DNA of 64,000 bases from a virus (taxonomy: Duplodnaviria; Caudoviricetes), in the IMG/VR virus record IMGVR_UViG_3300027740_000003, positions 352,001 to 416,000 of that record; one strand, 5' to 3'. The notes beneath the pieces were generated by a model that searched no databases, was not told the DNA's origin, and saw nothing but the letters and a program-made list of their open reading frames with translations. Below are positions 1,163-49,301 of the stretch, piece after piece; position 1 is the first letter of the stretch; the number at the start of each line of letters is the position of its first letter. The position numbers and the translations under genes are program-made.

Positions 1163-1456
1163 TTATTCTATTATATCCTTAATGATTAGTTCTTCATTTG
1201 ATAACTTTTTAATATATTCTCCCACAAACAATTTGGGCAATATTTCCCACCAATAACGAATTAAAACTGAGCCTGACTTTTTATATTCTTCAATGTAAAC
1301 AAACCAAATACCATTAGTATACATATCTGTGTTGCCATCAATGTTTTTAACAAATCCAATAACATAACAATTGTTTTCCTCAAAAGAAATCGGGCCTCCT
1401 ATATTATAAGTTTTATTACAATAATAAACTCCCCCTAACTCTGGACCCAATATCAT
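1163..1456 (-). CDS. IKDIIE-tail small protein (class C)
   Basis: Ends LSNEELIIKDIIE*; YxCxK...ExNxCY body shared with neighbour. Confidence 0.85.
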   Translation of the reverse strand: MILGPELGGVYYCNKTYNIGGPISFEENNCYVIGFVKNIDGNTDMYTNGIWFVYIEEYKKSGSVLIRYWWEILPKLFVGEYIKKLSNEELIIKDIIE

Positions 1457-1731
1457 TCAATTATATCCTTAATCATTACTTCTTCATCCGAAAGTTTTTC
1501 CAACACTCCAGATTCTATTAATTGGTTTAATATCCATTGAGTTGTCGTAAAACAATAACAGCTATTTTCTTCTGTTAATATACAATATAGCTCGTCATCC
1601 TCCCAATGGGTTTCTATATAACATTCATTTTCTATCAAAGTCATATTTAAATTAGACTTTAGACACAAGTAAACATTATAAAAATAGGCCTGAACTTCCC
1701 CAGAAAGAATATTCAGGCCCATCTTTTTCAT
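1453..1731 (-). CDS. IKDIIE-tail small protein (class C)
   Basis: Ends LSDEEVMIKDIIE*; ATGA overlap with next gene. Confidence 0.85.
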   Translation of the reverse strand: MKKMGLNILSGEVQAYFYNVYLCLKSNLNMTLIENECYIETHWEDDELYCILTEENSCYCFTTTQWILNQLIESGVLEKLSDEEVMIKDIIE

Positions 1732-26285: not shown

Positions 26286-26570
26286 TTATTCTATTATATC
26301 TTTAATCATCATTTCTACACAAAGCAAAACGTCATTATTCCCATAATATGAACCCTTGTAAATATAATAAAAAGGATATTTTGTTGACATTGGCCTTAAC
26401 TGAGATATAATCTGAAAAAATTCTATATCAGTATCAGTATCAGAATGATTAATACAACGCATACCACATTTTTTACAATTATAAACTCTCGATTCGTTAG
26501 AATTATCTAAAGGTTTATAATTGTCGTCTATGATAAATTCATGATCCTTCTTTGCTTCTTCCGGCAGCAT
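26286..26570 (-). CDS. IKDIIE-tail small protein (class B, Zn-binding)
   Basis: KKDHEF...CKKC...LLCVEMMIKDIIE*. Confidence 0.88.
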   Translation of the reverse strand: MLPEEAKKDHEFIIDDNYKPLDNSNESRVYNCKKCGMRCINHSDTDTDIEFFQIISQLRPMSTKYPFYYIYKGSYYGNNDVLLCVEMMIKDIIE

Positions 26571-26794
26571 TATTCTATTATATCCTTGATAATATATTCG
26601 TCATATCTAAGACACGGATAATAATCATCTAACAAAAGCCAGTCAGCAATCTTTAATCTTCTCAATACATCTCCTTGATTTTGATCTAAAGAATTTAATA
26701 AAAGAGCATAAAATTTTCCACAATGTATACATTTCCCATCAATAAAACGATGTCTTATTCTGTCTCCCGTTATTTCTATTCTGTTATTTTTCAT
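26570..26794 (-). CDS. IKDIIE-tail small protein (class B)
   Basis: HRF...CIHCGK...YYPCLRYDEYIIKDIIE*. Confidence 0.88.
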   Translation of the reverse strand: MKNNRIEITGDRIRHRFIDGKCIHCGKFYALLLNSLDQNQGDVLRRLKIADWLLLDDYYPCLRYDEYIIKDIIE

Positions 26795-26803
26795 CTAAAT
26801 TCA

Positions 26804-27097
26804 TTATTCTATTATATTTTTTATAATTATCTCATCACAAGAAAGCTCCTGTAATTCATAAGACGTTTCCCATAAAATTGGTTTTCCATATCCAACATAA
26901 AACCCTTGATCTAAAGCTTTCATGTTGTATATGTTTTCTTGCCAATCGTTTTCATTTTTATAAAGACGTAAAACTAAACCACATTTTTTACATTTATAAT
27001 TGATAAAATCAAAATCATAAGCTCTATTACCTAGGGAAAAACCTTGATCATAAAAAATTACAAATTCGTGATCCTTCTTTCCTTCTTCCAGCAACAT
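26804..27097 (-). CDS. IKNIIE-tail small protein (class B)
   Basis: KKDHEF...CKKC...LSCDEIIIKNIIE*. Confidence 0.88.
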   Translation of the reverse strand: MLLEEGKKDHEFVIFYDQGFSLGNRAYDFDFINYKCKKCGLVLRLYKNENDWQENIYNMKALDQGFYVGYGKPILWETSYELQELSCDEIIIKNIIE

Positions 27098-27384
27098 TAT
27101 TCTATTATGTCCTTTATAACCATATCAATACACGACATTTGTTGAGCTTCATATGAAAGTTTATATGTTCTAAAATCATAATACCAGCCCTGTTCATATG
27201 CCAAACTGTTATATACATTTTTAATACACAATTCCGGATTTTCAATTACACATAATGTAATTTTACATTTGCTGCATCTATAATAATGCATGTCAGAATT
27301 TTTACATTCGGGAAGATCATATCTTTCAGTTGAAATGAAAACAAAATTATGATCAGCAATGGCACTTTCAGGAATTGGTCTCAT
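27097..27384 (-). CDS. IKDIIE-tail small protein (class B)
   Basis: ADHNF...CSKC...MSCIDMVIKDIIE*. Confidence 0.88.
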   Translation of the reverse strand: MRPIPESAIADHNFVFISTERYDLPECKNSDMHYYRCSKCKITLCVIENPELCIKNVYNSLAYEQGWYYDFRTYKLSYEAQQMSCIDMVIKDIIE

Positions 27385-27614
27385 TCAATAATGTCCTTTA
27401 TCATTGCTTCACTCTCTGTTAAACATGGATAATATTTGTCTAAAACGGAATCTATAATATCAAATGTTTGTCCGAAAGAACGACTATATTCTTTTTCATG
27501 TTCTTTTTTTAATTTGTTCAATAACAAAAAATAACTTTTCCCGCAAATTCTGCACCCATATCCATTTTGGTTTTGAAAATGAACAAACCTATGATTCATT
27601 CTCTTTTCTGGCAT
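27381..27614 (-). CDS. IKDIIE-tail small protein (class B)
   Basis: NHRF...CRICGK...YYPCLTESEAMIKDIIE*. Confidence 0.88.
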   Translation of the reverse strand: MPEKRMNHRFVHFQNQNGYGCRICGKSYFLLLNKLKKEHEKEYSRSFGQTFDIIDSVLDKYYPCLTESEAMIKDIIE

Positions 27615-38709: not shown

Positions 38710-39009
38710 TTATTCTATTATATCTTTTATCATCATGTCAACACACGTATAGTTGCAATATTCTGACCCATCTATATAATACCACGAATCATTAATCCAT
38801 TTATCCCGTGATAATTCATTAACCAATCCGCCATAAACAGTATCTATAAACGTTTTTAAATCTAAAACATAAATACATTTAATATTGCATTTATTACATT
38901 TATATACAATAAAACTTTTATAACTATAATCAATATAGAATTTATGATCTTTCTTTACTTCTTTTGGAATAATTACATTGGTTGTTTTATAATATCCTTT
39001 ATAACTCAT
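38710..39009 (-). CDS. IKDIIE-tail small protein (class B)
   Basis: KKDHKF...CNKC...YTCVDMMIKDIIE*; start re-set to ATGA-coupled MSYKG. Confidence 0.88.
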   Translation of the reverse strand: MSYKGYYKTTNVIIPKEVKKDHKFYIDYSYKSFIVYKCNKCNIKCIYVLDLKTFIDTVYGGLVNELSRDKWINDSWYYIDGSEYCNYTCVDMMIKDIIE

Positions 39010-39260
39010 TCTATAATATCCTTTATCATCATATCTACACACGTATAATTATTTATACTTTTACCATTATACATATACCACCACTGTTTTCCTTTGGAAG
39101 TTAAAGGTCTTAAAAAATCCTCAGCATTATCTAAAACAACTACACAAATTAGTTTGCATTTGCTACATACATAATACGTATAATATATTCCTTCAAAATG
39201 AAAATCAAAATTATGATCTTTCTTTGCCCCGTCCGGTAATGGAAATTTGTTCTCAGTCAT
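39006..39260 (-). CDS. IKDIIE-tail small protein (class B)
   Basis: KKDHNF...CSKC...YTCVDMMIKDIIE*. Confidence 0.88.
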   Translation of the reverse strand: MTENKFPLPDGAKKDHNFDFHFEGIYYTYYVCSKCKLICVVVLDNAEDFLRPLTSKGKQWWYMYNGKSINNYTCVDMMIKDIIE

Positions 39261-39727
39261 TCTATAATATCTTTTATAGCCAAATTATCTAATATTTCTT
39301 GTTCGTATTCTGTATTTATTAAATATTTAGCGCAAAAAACAACTATTTCTTCATCATATTTAGATTCATTTATAGCTAACATGCATAGTTCTTTGGACGG
39401 TTTTCTTATCCATATAATTGCTCTAGGATAGTTTTTAATAATTTCCATTTTGTATTCTTCAGAAAGGTTTGCCGTATCAACATTAGTTAATATGGATTCA
39501 TTTGTACTACCTATCGCATAAAGAATAACTTCAAGCGACGGTTCTTCTATATGAAATAGAGAATCTTCATCATTTTCCACTGCCACTTTTTGTAATCTAA
39601 TTGTTTGTTGTTCTTTAGGAAGAAAATAAATATTATAAGGGTTGTCTTTAATCATTGATAATATTTGTTTTTTATTTTTTGGATCATATTCTATCGTTTT
39701 AACAATAAGATCATTTAAAGATTTCAT
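39257..39727 (-). CDS. IKDIIE-tail protein with short helical repeats (class D, DUF4116-like)
   Basis: Repeats IKDNPYNIYFL / VENDEDSLFHIEEPSLEVILYAI / IKNYPRAIIWIRKPSKELCMLAI; ends LAIKDIIE*. Confidence 0.85.
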   Translation of the reverse strand: MKSLNDLIVKTIEYDPKNKKQILSMIKDNPYNIYFLPKEQQTIRLQKVAVENDEDSLFHIEEPSLEVILYAIGSTNESILTNVDTANLSEEYKMEIIKNYPRAIIWIRKPSKELCMLAINESKYDEEIVVFCAKYLINTEYEQEILDNLAIKDIIE

Positions 39728-44814: not shown

Positions 44815-45295
44815 AATAATCTTCTAGCTCTTTTTCAGCAATTTCTTTTTCTGTTTTAAAATACTCTTTTACTTTATTTATTATAACATCAGATATCCCA
44901 TATATAACAAATTTTTCTTGCCAATCCTTATCAGGTCTATCACCATAACTACTAGCTTCACCGACAGTAAGACAACAAGGATTAGAATAAACCTTAAATC
45001 CATCTATTTCCAGATATGGCCAAACTTCAACAGGGGAATCACCACAACAACCACAATCATGTCCAATTTCACATTTGTCCACCAATGAATTGACAGATTT
45101 AGAATACCACCTTTCTCTTTTCCACCGATTGGTATGTTTTTTAAGATCAGGATATAAAACTGCTAATTTTCTTAGCTCGGCCATTTTATTTAATATTAGC
45201 GACGCCTCTTTCTTTAATAATTCTATTTGATAATCTATACATAATAATCTTTCTTGTTCCGCTAAGAATTCATCTTGTTCTTCTTTAGTTCTCAT
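44801..45295 (-). CDS. hypothetical protein (CGCCG motif)
   Basis: 164-aa ORF. Confidence 0.7.
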   Translation of the reverse strand: MRTKEEQDEFLAEQERLLCIDYQIELLKKEASLILNKMAELRKLAVLYPDLKKHTNRWKRERWYSKSVNSLVDKCEIGHDCGCCGDSPVEVWPYLEIDGFKVYSNPCCLTVGEASSYGDRPDKDWQEKFVIYGISDVIINKVKEYFKTEKEIAEKELEDYYGDK

Positions 45296-46191
45296 AACAA
45301 ATTCCTGTTCTTTTCAATTATTTGTTGAATGTCTCTTAATGCCTGGACGGCCTTGTCTGGATTAACAATTGCATCGGAAAGAGATCCGTAATGTTCTTCA
45401 AGGCAGTTCAAAAGGAGTTGTTTTATAGCGCCTTCATCTGGAGAGTGGCGCAGGGTAGATTCTTCGTAAAGTTTATCTAGATACTTCTCTTTCTGGGAGA
45501 ACCATTCGTTTATATCTTCCATGGACTTTTCTCCTCGACGAACGGCTTTTAGAATTTCTCTATTTCTTTCGAGGTCAAGATCTCCTTCTAGAAGAATTTG
45601 CTCTGCTTGCATGGCCAGCCGCAGAACGTGATAGGCGAATTTTGTTTCTAGTCCGTACTTTTCTACGTTTGCCGCCCTCTTTGATCCGGGCTGATATCCT
45701 TCTATTTTCATTTTATGTAATTGTGAAAATGAGTATCCGATGTACTTTTGTTTCGCCCCCCGATGAAGGAACATCTTTCTTTTTTCTCTAATCATTTGTC
45801 CAATACGAGTAATATGCAATACGCATCTTTCTGGAACAAATAAAGAGTCAATCATGTTTGGATTATTCTCCATACATAATTGAAAGTATTTAACAATACT
45901 ATACACAGAACAATCATATTCTTTTCCTTTATCCGGATCTTTAATATGATGTTCTTGATATTGTTCAAATCTTTTTATTTGATTTCCGAATCCGGGAATT
46001 TCTCCACGAAGATGGGGAAAAATCATATCTTTTGGAGGGATACAGAATCCATAGATATCGATATCACTATCATTGGAAGAAACACCATAAGCCTCTGATC
46101 CCATAATGACTTCGTAATGAATATTAGAAGGAAGCCATTGTGGCGGATGAATAATCTGATTTTGAGCTAATCTTGATACTACACTTGGCAT
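45292..46191 (-). CDS. Pol-beta-superfamily nucleotidyltransferase (YcgL/RlaP-like)
   Basis: GSEAYGVSSNDSDIDIYG, ENNPNMIDSLF, KFAYHVLRL. Confidence 0.85.
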   Translation of the reverse strand: MPSVVSRLAQNQIIHPPQWLPSNIHYEVIMGSEAYGVSSNDSDIDIYGFCIPPKDMIFPHLRGEIPGFGNQIKRFEQYQEHHIKDPDKGKEYDCSVYSIVKYFQLCMENNPNMIDSLFVPERCVLHITRIGQMIREKRKMFLHRGAKQKYIGYSFSQLHKMKIEGYQPGSKRAANVEKYGLETKFAYHVLRLAMQAEQILLEGDLDLERNREILKAVRRGEKSMEDINEWFSQKEKYLDKLYEESTLRHSPDEGAIKQLLLNCLEEHYGSLSDAIVNPDKAVQALRDIQQIIEKNRNLL

Positions 46192-46202
46192 TTTATTATT
46201 CC

Positions 46203-46502
46203 TTATTCTATTATATCTTTTATCATTAACTCGTTTTTAGATAATACAAATATTTCTGCATCCTCAGAAAGTACCGCCAACATAATTTCTTCCGGAAAAT
46301 CTTCGTTAAAAGCTATATATATTTTATAACTATTATTAAAGTTTTGAGAGATATGTTCTTTAATACAATCTCTAATTTCAACTTCAAGACAGAAACTTTT
46401 AAATTTTGGCCAGTGAAGCCAACTCATTTTACCATTATTATAACTAATATAGAATCGTTCTCCAGATTTAATACATAAAGTTTTACACCCAACACATCCC
46501 AT
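46203..46502 (-). CDS. IKDIIE-tail small protein (class A)
   Basis: GCKTLCIKSGE...LSKNELMIKDIIE*. Confidence 0.88.
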   Translation of the reverse strand: MGCVGCKTLCIKSGERFYISYNNGKMSWLHWPKFKSFCLEVEIRDCIKEHISQNFNNSYKIYIAFNEDFPEEIMLAVLSEDAEIFVLSKNELMIKDIIE

Positions 46503-46786
46503 TATTCTATTATATCCTTAATTATCATCTCTTCTTTGGAAAGAATTTTAACACAATTTATATATTGTTCTTCAATAAAATAACCTAGAAATAAACAATC
46601 TTGAAAAAAACAAACTAATGAATAAAAATCTTCTTTTTTAGAATTAAAATCATTAAACCAATATCCGCATGTGGAAAAATCAACTTTGTTTACATCGTCT
46701 CCTGTTTTATACAGCTTTTTTATATTAGATAAGTATACTCCCTCTCCTTCTTTCAAAATAATAACTTTATGTCCTATACAAGGCAT
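46502..46786 (-). CDS. IKDIIE-tail small protein (class A)
   Basis: GHKVIILKEGE...LSKEEMIIKDIIE*. Confidence 0.88.
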   Translation of the reverse strand: MPCIGHKVIILKEGEGVYLSNIKKLYKTGDDVNKVDFSTCGYWFNDFNSKKEDFYSLVCFFQDCLFLGYFIEEQYINCVKILSKEEMIIKDIIE

Positions 46787-47154
46787 TATTCTATTATATC
46801 CTTAATTATCATTTCATCTTCTGACAATATTTTATATCTTGTATCAGACCATTCTGATACAACAAACATTGAATATGCCCCATCTTCCCAATTTACAATA
46901 ACCATTTTAGGATCCAAACAATTCAATTTTGCAATTTCCTCAAATACACATAACATAGTTTCATAATACCAATTATACGAAACGCTATTAGTATATATTT
47001 TATTAGGATAAAATATATCGTTTTTCGTAATAGTTCCACCGACTTTGTTTTTAATATTTAAAAATTTACACATCCCCGACATTGATAAATCAAACATAAT
47101 ATCATTATGATTAAGATCAAAAACAACCTCCCATTGAGATTCCTTCTTGGCCAT
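46786..47154 (-). CDS. IKDIIE-tail small protein (class A-like)
   Basis: MVIVNWEDG...LSEDEMIIKDIIE*. Confidence 0.88.
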   Translation of the reverse strand: MAKKESQWEVVFDLNHNDIMFDLSMSGMCKFLNIKNKVGGTITKNDIFYPNKIYTNSVSYNWYYETMLCVFEEIAKLNCLDPKMVIVNWEDGAYSMFVVSEWSDTRYKILSEDEMIIKDIIE

Positions 47155-47432
47155 TATTCTATAATGTCCTTAATCATCATTTCATCTTCGGTAAGAATTA
47201 CTATTTTTTCCCAATCATATGCTATAATAAAATTGTAATAATTTTTCCACATAAAAGTATATATTATTGTAGGATCGGGCAAAGTTTGAAACCCTTTATA
47301 TATATCTTTATAATTCACATGTTGGTTATAACCAAGCCTTTTATTAAACAAACGTATATATTTTTTATTACCATGCACAATAAAACCTTCATCTCCATCA
47401 TTCATAATAACAGTTTTACAAGCAATAATCAT
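47154..47432 (-). CDS. IKDIIE-tail small protein (class A)
   Basis: ACKTVIMNDGDE...LTEDEMMIKDIIE*. Confidence 0.88.
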   Translation of the reverse strand: MIIACKTVIMNDGDEGFIVHGNKKYIRLFNKRLGYNQHVNYKDIYKGFQTLPDPTIIYTFMWKNYYNFIIAYDWEKIVILTEDEMMIKDIIE

Positions 47433-47712
47433 TCAATGATGTCCTTTATCATTATTTCGTCTTCAGTAAGAATTTGAATCATTTCTATTTGATTTGGTTT
47501 TAAAAAACCACAAGTATAACAGCCATCATCATAAAAAATTATATACGACATCACTTCTTCGTCTTTATTTAAACCCCATTAATCCATTGAGTATAGTGCT
47601 TAAAAACATCTTCTAAAAATGGGGATTTATTAAGCCATCCATTGCCTAAATAACCACTACAACGTGCTAGCTTTCCTCCTTTAACATAAAATGTTTTATG
47701 ACCAACCAACAT
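47429..47712 (-). pseudogene. frameshifted IKDIIE-tail gene, recent duplicate of 48464-48748
   Basis: MLVGHKTFYVKGGKLARCSGYLGNGWLNKSPFLEDVFKHY then 1-nt loss in T-run (A3 at 47571-47573 vs A4 at 48606-48609); other frame continues ...QILTEDEIMIKDIIE*. Confidence 0.85.
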
Positions 47713-48011
47713 TATTCAATGATGTCCTTTATCATTAAATCATCTTCGGTAAGAATTATATATTTTAAATATTTAGAGTGTACCACCAATAAATAAGAAC
47801 CTTCTTCCCAAAACACATTTAAAAATATTAAACTCAGATTATATAACTCTCTACTATGAATCCAAATTTTATTTTCTCGGAAAAATTTTGAATCACCCTC
47901 TCTAATTTCATGTGGATTTTTAACGATTGACGGTTCGTCTGAAGGAAGACTACGATCAATAAATAAACACTGATCGTCTTTTAAAACAATTGTTTTAAAC
48001 TCAAAATCCAT
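47712..48011 (-). CDS. IKDIIE-tail small protein (class A)
   Basis: MDFEFKTIVLKDD...LTEDDLMIKDIIE*. Confidence 0.88.
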   Translation of the reverse strand: MDFEFKTIVLKDDQCLFIDRSLPSDEPSIVKNPHEIREGDSKFFRENKIWIHSRELYNLSLIFLNVFWEEGSYLLVVHSKYLKYIILTEDDLMIKDIIE

Positions 48012-48012
48012 A

Positions 48013-48288
48013 TTATTCAATGATATCTTTAATTATCAAATCGTCTTCGGTAAGAATGTTTATTTTATCAAGTCGTTCTAAAGGAACAATTCCGGCACTG
48101 CAAAAACCATCATCATAGAAAATGAAATACAAAACCTCCGAACAATCTATATGGCGCTGTTCTATTATTTTATTTATAAACTGAAAAGTATCCGAAAAAT
48201 CACTCTTCACAATGTCAAGATTTTCATCTGAAAAATAAGCCCGCTTTGCTCCTTTTACATATTCAAATGCTTTAACATTATAATTCAC
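48013..48288 (-). CDS. IKDIIE-tail small protein (class A)
   Basis: GTGA-coupled start; YFIFYDDG...LTEDDLIIKDIIE*. Confidence 0.88.
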   Translation of the reverse strand: MNYNVKAFEYVKGAKRAYFSDENLDIVKSDFSDTFQFINKIIEQRHIDCSEVLYFIFYDDGFCSAGIVPLERLDKINILTEDDLIIKDIIE

Positions 48289-48467
48289 TTGTTTTTGTCC
48301 CACTCTCTCTTAACAATCTCTCTAATAAATTCTTTTGAAATATGAGAGTCCTCAATTGCCAAATTGCCATAAACAAATGATACGGCTTGCTCAAACCTTT
48401 CTTCATCAGTCATTTTATAATCTTTAACTGATTCAAGCAATTCTTTAAGCTCTTTAGACATCGTCAT
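48285..48467 (-). CDS. small protein without tail embedded in the array
   Basis: 60 aa, coupled on both sides. Confidence 0.7.
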   Translation of the reverse strand: MTMSKELKELLESVKDYKMTDEERFEQAVSFVYGNLAIEDSHISKEFIREIVKREWDKNK

Positions 48468-48748
48468 TCTATTATATCCTTAATCATTAAGTCGTCTTCG
48501 GTAAGAATTTGCATCATTTTTATTTGATTTAGTGTTAAAAATCCATTAGTATAATAACCGTCATCATAAAAAATTATATACGACATCATTTCTTCATCTC
48601 CATTTAAAACCACTTCAATCCAATGATTATAGTGCTTAAAAACATCTTCTAAAAATGGGGATTTAATAAACCACCCATCACCAAAATAACCACTACAACG
48701 TGCTAATTTTCCTCCCTTAACATAAAATGTTTTATGACCAACCAACAT
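48464..48748 (-). CDS. IKDIIE-tail small protein (class A)
   Basis: MLVGHKTFYVKGG...YIIFYDDG...LTEDDLMIKDIIE*. Confidence 0.9.
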   Translation of the reverse strand: MLVGHKTFYVKGGKLARCSGYFGDGWFIKSPFLEDVFKHYNHWIEVVLNGDEEMMSYIIFYDDGYYTNGFLTLNQIKMMQILTEDDLMIKDIIE

Positions 48749-49023
48749 TATTCAATAATATCCTTTATCATTATTTCGTCTTCAGTGAGAATTTGTAATG
48801 AATCCAGCATTTCCTCAGAAAGAAAACCAGAACCCACTTTACCATCTTCAAAAAAAATTATATATGATATAAACTCTTCGGTTTGAGACAAAATATGCTT
48901 CATCCTATTTGCATAAAACTTCAATGTTTCTTGAGTATTTTCCTTAATAATTTTAAACTTAGCAGGCCCAACGTAAGCCTCTTTGCCATCTTTAACATAA
49001 AATGTTTTATGACCAACCAACAT
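48748..49023 (-). CDS. IKDIIE-tail small protein (class A)
   Basis: MLVGHKTFYVKDG...YIIFFEDG...LTEDEIMIKDIIE*. Confidence 0.9.
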   Translation of the reverse strand: MLVGHKTFYVKDGKEAYVGPAKFKIIKENTQETLKFYANRMKHILSQTEEFISYIIFFEDGKVGSGFLSEEMLDSLQILTEDEIMIKDIIE

Positions 49024-49301
49024 TATTCAATAATGTCCTTAATCATTAAATCATCATCAGTCAATACATAAATGTTAGTTTCTCTGTTAGAAAAATATCT
49101 ATAATCAACATTACCTTCGGGCCAGAAAATTGTTAAAAATAAAAAACAATAATTATCTTTTTTATTTAATGCTTTAATAGCATTATCACAACACCAATTC
49201 CTTTCCTCACTATTATTACGTAATTCCTTATTAAAATTAAATAGATGATCTCCTTCCTTTAAAACAATTACTTTATAGTTAAATTCATCTGGGGCTTCCA
49301 T
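49023..49301 (-). CDS. IKDIIE-tail small protein (class A)
   Basis: NYKVIVLKEGD...TIFWPEG...LTDDDLMIKDIIE*. Confidence 0.9.
   Translation of the reverse strand: MEAPDEFNYKVIVLKEGDHLFNFNKELRNNSEERNWCCDNAIKALNKKDNYCFLFLTIFWPEGNVDYRYFSNRETNIYVLTDDDLMIKDIIE

Follow-up and report, generated by a model that had tools for sequence, protein, structure and literature searches.

Analysis of a 64,000-nucleotide stretch of soil-phage DNA (positions 352001-416000 of the 435,004-bp virus record IMGVR_UViG_3300027740_000003, 35% GC; hereafter the window) revealed that small genes encoding a common six-residue C-terminal tail, IKDIIE, use the lysine codon AAG more often when the start of the next gene overlaps their stop codon. 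This pattern probably reflects overlap-driven selection for a Shine-Dalgarno (SD) sequence within the Lys-Asp codons of the tail, a form of ordinary dual coding that we read here from sequence. The window lies within the 435-kb genome designated G000, and L-numbered loci denote stretches from other contigs.

A shared peptide tail at overlapping gene ends

A six-frame scan located 20 tails in the window, 19 reading IKDIIE-stop and one reading IKNIIE-stop (26804), among genes that lie nearly all on the minus strand. Ten small genes of 41-122 codons, all ending IKDIIE-stop, form a tight row at 46203-49301 that also contains one 60-codon gene without the tail, and one tailed member of the row is split in two. 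An N-terminal K-[TV]-h-h-h-K-x-G motif is common to several proteins of the row, which on this basis is an array of distant paralogues. Comparison of its ten proteins with Pfam and PHROGs returned nothing above threshold, no near-identical match to the region turned up in the phage collection, and a full-text literature search for IKDIIE gave no relevant match. Across the whole genome the pattern [ILV][KR][DN]I-I-[EQ]-stop identifies 107 tailed genes, all small and sharing the peptide of their last six codons. Once the last 13 residues are removed, their proteins separate by BLAST into 66 groups, 60 of which are singletons. The third codon positions of the tail all vary (Ile ATA/ATT/ATC, Lys AAA/AAG, Asp GAT/GAC) and are mostly unlinked, which indicates that selection acts on the peptide and that the tails are not one recent DNA copy. 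DNA identity among tails is about 80% over 21 nt, with no homogenisation at the DNA level.

What distinguishes tailed genes from others is the frequency with which they overlap their neighbour. Counting ATGA or TAATG junctions with a downstream open reading frame (ORF) of at least 40 codons, the tail's stop overlaps the next start in 14 of the 20 tails of the window and in 77 of the 107 in the genome. On crude ORF-based gene calls, 64 of 92 tailed genes overlap the next gene, as against 62 of 322 other genes of at most 150 codons. TGA stops at tails are almost confined to sites where they form ATGA.

A separate codon preference was observed at the three isoleucines of the tail, where ATA is favoured at every position (59% over the 107 tails versus 36% in gene bodies, p=1e-15) irrespective of overlap; the tails at 46502-46522 and 48464-48484 are examples from the window. 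The last seven codons of tail-less genes show a weaker shift in the same direction, to 45%. This preference may stem from an A-rich initiation region, from codon context or from shared ancestry.

Lysine codon choice and the overlapping start

The preliminary description of the window had counted AAG in 13 of 14 overlapped tails and AAA in 5 of 6 non-overlapped ones, a count that proved exact (Fisher p=0.0022, n=20). Direct reading of the sequence likewise confirmed the spacing that it gave, with AAGGA lying 9 nt from the start at ATGA junctions and 12 nt at TAATG junctions, and genome-wide codon usage bore out its expectation that AAG is the minor lysine codon (25.5% of all Lys codons and 19.8% of those before GA). 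Its description of the overlapping downstream genes as full-length holds everywhere except after the 47712 tail, where the downstream reading frame is the N-terminal part, 47 codons long, of a split gene. Relative to the 19.8% baseline, Lys-Asp tails with an overlap are strongly enriched in AAG (41/69, p=6e-13), whereas those lacking one show no clear enrichment (9/26, p=0.08).

Extended to all 101 Lys tails of the genome, the AAG/AAA counts are 42/30 at overlapped and 9/20 at non-overlapped junctions (odds ratio, OR, 3.1; p=0.016). The switch between the two codons therefore persists genome-wide as a tendency and fails as the categorical rule initially proposed, with 28 of 69 overlapped Lys-Asp tails carrying AAA. 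The association remained when codons were permuted within 16 arrays (p=0.0016, whole genome) and in a logistic model that included the local AAG fraction (OR 3.8; array-cluster bootstrap 95% confidence interval of the log OR 0.34-3.69). Broken down by junction, the AAG share in the genome is 31/59 at ATGA, 11/13 at TAATG, 1/6 with a spacer of 0-3 nt, 2/13 with 4-20 nt and 6/9 with more than 20 nt.

The sequence that AAG creates is a plausible ribosome-binding site in this genome. Upstream of the 277 starts that lie at least 15 nt from the previous gene, the top 5-mers were TAAGG (5.4x), AGGAG (5.0x) and AAGGA (4.0x), and AAGGA was the most frequent of all (37/277), positioned 5-9 nt before the start with a minor group at 12-13 nt. 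The duplex predicted with a canonical anti-SD sequence, assumed here and possibly not that of the host, has an energy of -5.9 kcal/mol for an AAG tail and -0.9 kcal/mol for an AAA tail. Where a spacer of 4-20 nt follows the tail, an SD-like motif is mostly found in the spacer itself and the lysine codon is AAA. Spacers of 0-3 nt would place a tail AAGGA 13-16 nt from the start, and there AAA is used in five of six cases, a trend also present in relatives. Windows around the junctions showed no unusual RNA secondary structure (mean folding z 0.0), and the array contained no excess of promoter-like sites (31 vs 25.8±6.1 in shuffles) or terminator-like sites (3 vs 1.8±1.4 in shuffles), which would be consistent with a single transcript. 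Among public sequencing runs, no RNA data set is listed as containing the sequence. Together, these features make an SD embedded in the tail the best reading of the motif.

The mechanism that we propose treats the tail as primarily a conserved C-terminal peptide. Its Lys-Asp codons fall 14-10 nt upstream of an ATGA start and 17-13 nt upstream of a TAATG start, which is where an overlapping next gene would need its SD. Encoded as AAG GAY, they yield AAGGA, predicted to pair with the 3' end of 16S rRNA, and encoded as AAA GAY they do not. When a start sits on the stop codon, selection would tend to retain the synonymous G, which may then help a free 30S subunit, or a ribosome that has just terminated at the UGA or UAA of the tail, onto the overlapping AUG. 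In this manner AAGGA would increase the translation of the gene that follows, either through reinitiation or through de novo initiation. With the next gene 4-20 nt away, the site would lie in the spacer and the lysine codon could relax to the usual AAA. Such a constraint is easily visible here only because 107 genes share their last six codons.

The same signature is found well beyond the tailed genes. Of the 140 tail-less genes whose stop overlaps the next start, 77 have an SD-like motif within their last 18 nt, compared with 105 of the 387 tail-less genes that have no neighbour or are separated from it by 4 nt or more (OR 3.3, p=7e-9). At lysine codons 3-7 from the end of tail-less genes, AAG accounts for 45% in overlapped and 33% in non-overlapped pairs. 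The enrichment is thus a general property of gene ends and not a built-in feature of the tail. The proposal that each tailed gene carries the ribosome-binding site for whatever follows accordingly survives as a tendency; the overlapped tails that keep AAA contradict it as a rule, and the tail-less genes contradict it as something specific to tails. The AAG/AAA effect is an ordinary dual-coding effect at overlapped gene ends, moderate in size (OR about 3), without the force of a rule, and its mechanism is a known one. Intragenic SD sequences upstream of overlapped starts are widespread and often, though not always, matter for termination-reinitiation (PMC6728339); SD motifs have been found in the 3' end of upstream coding sequences at short spacings (PMC2784483); and in published experiments the contribution of the SD is variable and often dispensable (PMC6728339, PMC2784483, PMC12548453).

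Related phages offer an independent view of this effect. A degenerate-pattern scan of viral contigs recovered a 458,729-bp relative and several fragments with the same tail, and a scan of metagenome contigs yielded 37 further tail-bearing stretches, many of them from a sister phage with 66-91% nucleotide identity to this genome over aligned blocks. In the metagenome contigs the AAG/AAA counts were 38/10 for overlapped and 13/13 for non-overlapped tails (OR 3.8, p=0.017). The 458-kb relative uses AAG in 11 of 15 overlapped Lys-Asp tails against a 25% baseline (p=1e-4); only one of its tail proteins has a detectable counterpart in this genome, and as a result it provides no contrasts of codon against junction. 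The Cochran-Mantel-Haenszel OR was 3.0 over all sets (p=0.003) and 3.35 with this genome excluded (p=0.038). The effect of overlap on AAG use replicates, and its size is moderate.

Several observations weigh against selection for an embedded SD as the whole explanation. In the same genome outside the window, the AAG/AAA counts are 29/29 with overlap and 8/15 without (p=0.32, not significant), and the array-stratified permutation there gives p=0.097. The motif AAGGA is missing from 41% of overlapped Lys-Asp tails. TAATG junctions show the highest AAG share of all even though their 12-nt spacing is at the edge of the used range, and 9 of the 13 TAATG tails belong to the window's own arrays. The high AAG share behind spacers of more than 20 nt comes mostly from one family, DWKEFEQEILDN, which retains AAG whatever the junction, overlap or none. 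When tails of this genome were paired with related ones in the contigs (18 pairs), the lysine codon agreed in 16 and the junction differed in about 9, a stability that leaves part of the pattern to be explained by ancestry or by a family-specific constraint. Finally, very AT-rich relatives (19-25% GC over the stretches covered) mostly have IKNIIE encoded with AAA AAT, even at overlapped junctions, which means that the SD-like motif is not an obligatory part of the tail. Two of these relatives, L024 and L061 (IMGVR_UViG_3300005577_000030 and _000027), carry arrays of small genes ending LTCDE-h-IIKNIIE-stop, in which the tag has Asn in place of Asp, encoded AAA AAT.

A rival account is ancestry alone, in which AAG and overlap were inherited together through tandem duplication and the codon merely hitch-hiked with no selection on it. 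Most of the signal in the window derives from two arrays, at 398-401 kb and 378-379 kb of the genome, whose genes are distant paralogues and within which a TAATG followed by the same MLVGHK start recurs three times; the stability of the codon in related pairs and the loss of significance outside the window fit such a history, as does the difference between families, with LCPxC-type tails mostly AAA and DWKEFEQEILDN-type tails mostly AAG. On the other side, the other synonymous sites of these tails show divergence and no linkage with the lysine site, and in the 46-49 kb array the G is kept in all eight overlapped tails while Ile and Asp third positions differ. An AAG frequency of 59-79% in overlapped tails cannot persist neutrally against an equilibrium of 20-25%, the association is found within arrays as well as in other metagenomes (8/3 versus 1/6), and unrelated tail-less gene ends show the same enrichment. 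A permutation stratified by family gave p=0.25 and has no power, 60 of the 66 BLAST families being singletons. We therefore regard inheritance by itself as an improbable account of the association.

The larger tailed proteins of the DWKEFEQEILDN family are also internally repetitive, with tandem units that recur about every 66 nt (22 residues), seen as ladders of blastn hits at about 127200-127850, 172150-172650, 187770-188400, 340680-341080 and 341550-341960 of G000:C1, all outside the window. The family member in the window ends at 39257.

A cause at the codon level and unrelated to the next start, such as regional composition, expression class or an effect of AAG on translation or termination near the stop, appears very improbable. 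AAG is slightly commoner at gene ends (36% over the final seven codons versus 27% in bodies), as is ATA, and AAG use varies between arrays, as such a cause would suggest. Local AAG use around the tails is low (16-19%) and similar for AAG and AAA tails (p=0.19), however, and the overlap effect survives adjustment for it; the gene-end shift is itself concentrated in overlapped pairs, as the lysine codons 3-7 from the end of tail-less genes illustrate. Lys-Asn tails, in which no AAGGA is possible, are mostly AAA, an observation limited by their small number and their concentration in the 19-25% GC relatives, where AAG makes up 9-11% anyway. Selection for an SD at overlapped starts is thus the reading that we retain for the lysine codon.

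Individual tails of the window

All 20 tails lie on the minus strand. Read along that strand, the row at 46203-49301 begins with gene 49023..49301 (tail 49023..49043) and gene 48748..49023 (tail 48748..48768), both with AAG and both forming TAATG with the start of the following gene, 48748..49023 and 48464..48748, respectively. The AAG tail of gene 48464..48748 (48464..48484) forms ATGA with the 60-residue tail-less gene 48285..48467. The next tailed gene, 48013..48288/48303, has AAA in its tail (48013..48033), and its TAA is separated by 1 nt from the ATG of gene 47712..48011; a hypothetical AAGGA at this tail would be 14 nt from that start. Two in-frame GTG starts are available to the gene ending at 48013, and the GTG at 48286-48288, which overlaps the TGA of the 60-codon tail-less gene (GTGA), matches the N-termini of the paralogues better than the GTG at 48303 chosen by the ORF tool.

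Gene 47712..48011 ends in an AAG tail (47712..47732) that forms TAATG with the 47-codon N-terminal fragment 47569..47712 of a split paralogue. This paralogue, of the MLVGHKTFYVK type and spanning 47429-47712 (minus strand), consists of that ORF and a 41-codon tailed ORF at 47429..47554. Compared with the intact gene 48464..48748, it looks as if one T had been lost from a T run near 47560, and the split at about 47560 could represent a pseudogene, a sequencing error or a frameshift site. The tail on the C-terminal fragment (47429..47449) has AAG and forms ATGA with gene 47154..47432. Three AAG tails with TAATG junctions follow, those of gene 47154..47432 (47154..47174; next gene 46786..47154), gene 46786..47154 (46786..46806; next gene 46502..46786) and gene 46502..46786 (46502..46522; next gene 46203..46502). 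The row closes with gene 46203..46502, whose tail (46203..46223) has AAA and a TAA followed by an 11-nt spacer containing its own TAAGGA for the nucleotidyltransferase-like gene 45292..46191. The protein encoded by this last gene (299 codons, minus strand), which is located after the array, shares about 50% identity with nucleotidyltransferase-like proteins from jumbo phages of Caulobacter, Rhizobium and Xanthomonas, and a groundwater metagenome run contains many contigs 85-95% like the gene.

The remaining tails lie elsewhere in the window. At 39257..39277, the tail of the DWKEFEQEILDN-type family carries AAA despite an ATGA overlap and is the sole overlapped exception in the window; the tail at 39006..39026 has AAG with an ATGA overlap, and that at 38710..38730 has AAA before a 14-nt spacer with its own AAAGG. 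Further along, AAG occurs at 27381..27401 (ATGA overlap), 27097..27117 (TAATG overlap) and 26570..26590 (TAATG overlap). The IKNIIE variant at 26804..26824 is encoded AAA AAT, and its TAATG opens only a short ORF, the real start being 9 nt downstream; the tail at 26286..26306 has AAA and a 14-nt spacer. The tail at 1453..1473 has AAG with an ATGA overlap, and the one at 1163..1183 has AAG without overlap, ahead of a 7-nt spacer with its own AAAGG. The AAG of this 1163 tail is also present in its sister-phage counterpart (L114).

Gene turnover at tails and known systems

Comparison with sister-phage contigs indicates that tailed genes are gained and lost as units at their tails. The Ga0172380 contigs (L084-L118), which come from another metagenome, are collinear with G000 at 116-140 kb, 340-353 kb and 389-428 kb in conserved genes; within the tailed arrays many gene bodies are replaced or unalignable, and the tails and neighbouring conserved genes align. 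Six clean indels of one to three whole genes separate this genome from the sister-phage contigs: L118 vs tails G000 137766/136788, L118 vs 138988, L115 vs 127927, L102 vs 399429, L089 vs 343946/343694 and L084 vs 180388/180191. In every case the genome without the genes has two homology blocks that share nothing but the tail (25-36 nt), and the downstream gene, which is the same in both genomes, retains its start context. L118 illustrates the pattern, with the counterpart of the gene ending at 137766 joined directly to the gene after 136788 and three tailed genes (978 nt) skipped. Whole genes, about 200-980 nt in length, make up the gained or lost units; their bodies are unrelated, and only the last 20-40 nt are common to them. 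Overall, tails are the site of 6 of the 7 repeat-bounded indels and of all four breakpoints in 10 of the 37 rearrangement events. Many apparent tail-ended joints in contigs of three DNA runs were set aside, as their sides were only 20-36 letters long and came from other tail-bearing loci in this genome or its relatives; such joints are repeat cross-matches and give no verdict on indels at the population level.

This turnover raises the question of whether the tail has been selected as a cassette junction, kept at the DNA level to serve simultaneously as peptide tag, as ribosome-binding site and start for the next gene, and as recombination site. Small accessory genes could then be inserted, deleted and swapped as units, including between related giant phages, with operon translation undisturbed, and the tail would be a coding-sequence analogue of the promoter-early stem-loop (PeSL) cassettes of T4-type phages or of mycobacterial interspersed repetitive units (MIRUs). 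The frequent overlap of tailed genes with their neighbours, the crossing-over inside the tail with the downstream start retained, the concentration of indel and rearrangement breakpoints at tails, the ATA enrichment at tail isoleucines irrespective of overlap, and the PeSL (PMC2839356) and MIRU (PMC12548453) precedents would all fit this model. Nevertheless, any repeat of 20-40 nt that ends tandem genes passively draws unequal crossing-over or slippage, and the indels consequently do not demonstrate selection for shuffling. Variation at the synonymous sites of the tail is free and for the most part unlinked, the SD part is missing from two-fifths of overlapped tails (41%), and there is neither a promoter or terminator component nor a conserved RNA structure. 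The sister contigs, moreover, are metagenome assemblies, and the local and collinear nature of the six events argues against chimeras without excluding them. A selected cassette function is therefore possible and in our estimation unlikely. The earlier suggestion that tailed genes form stackable units is upheld insofar as genes come and go at tails without breaking the next start; it does not extend to a selected function, for which the passive behaviour of repeats is a sufficient alternative.

The tails provide a clean natural experiment on dual coding, with more than 100 genes sharing the same last codons and one synonymous site making or breaking a ribosome-binding site. The strength of selection for an intragenic SD would be directly readable from them, as about 59-79% AAG with overlap versus 20-25% at baseline. 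For annotation of this phage clade, the tails would indicate that the ATGA and TAATG starts that follow them are real. We see no new translation mechanism here, and instead a known mechanism in a tidy new setting. Accessory arrays gain and lose entire genes at the tails, a finding relevant to how giant phages replace small, fast-evolving genes, and this tail-bounded turnover is the part most worth following up.

Among known systems, PeSL cassettes (Arbiol et al. 2010, PMC2839356; PMC4122927) have two features in common with the tails: a short repeat borders small accessory ORFs where a large phage is variable, and indels and replacements between related phages break in the repeat, as the six whole-gene indels do here. 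A PeSL is an intergenic promoter plus terminator that acts on transcription, whereas the tail is coding and would act on translation; the promoter and terminator stem-loop that define a PeSL have no equivalent at the tails, where neither kind of site is in excess, and mini-circles are not known for tailed genes. MIRUs (PMC12548453) contain a short ORF of their own that ends in a 4-nt overlap with the next start, and their insertion has little effect on downstream expression, in both of which the tail is alike. A MIRU is, however, a 40-100 bp non-autonomous repeat that inserts at start codons, a description that the tails do not fit, and the unit here is a whole protein-coding gene of 60-200 codons of which only the last 20-40 nt are repeated.

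The remaining comparison is with intragenic SD sequences at ATGA/TGATG-type overlaps (Huber et al. 2019, PMC6728339; Palleja et al. 2009, PMC2784483; reviewed in PMC12548453), which have the same 4- or 1-nt co-directional overlap and likewise encode an SD-like motif at the very end of the upstream gene, where it occurs in many pairs, not all, and more often than in pairs that do not overlap. Tailed genes display three sequence features of an overlapped pair with an intragenic SD, namely the overlap, the motif (in 59% of overlapped Lys-Asp tails) at a spacing used in this genome, and the enrichment. They differ from the published cases in that coupling is here predicted from sequence and in that the motif depends on a single, fixed synonymous position in a peptide common to about 107 genes, which makes the constraint appear as an AAG/AAA switch.

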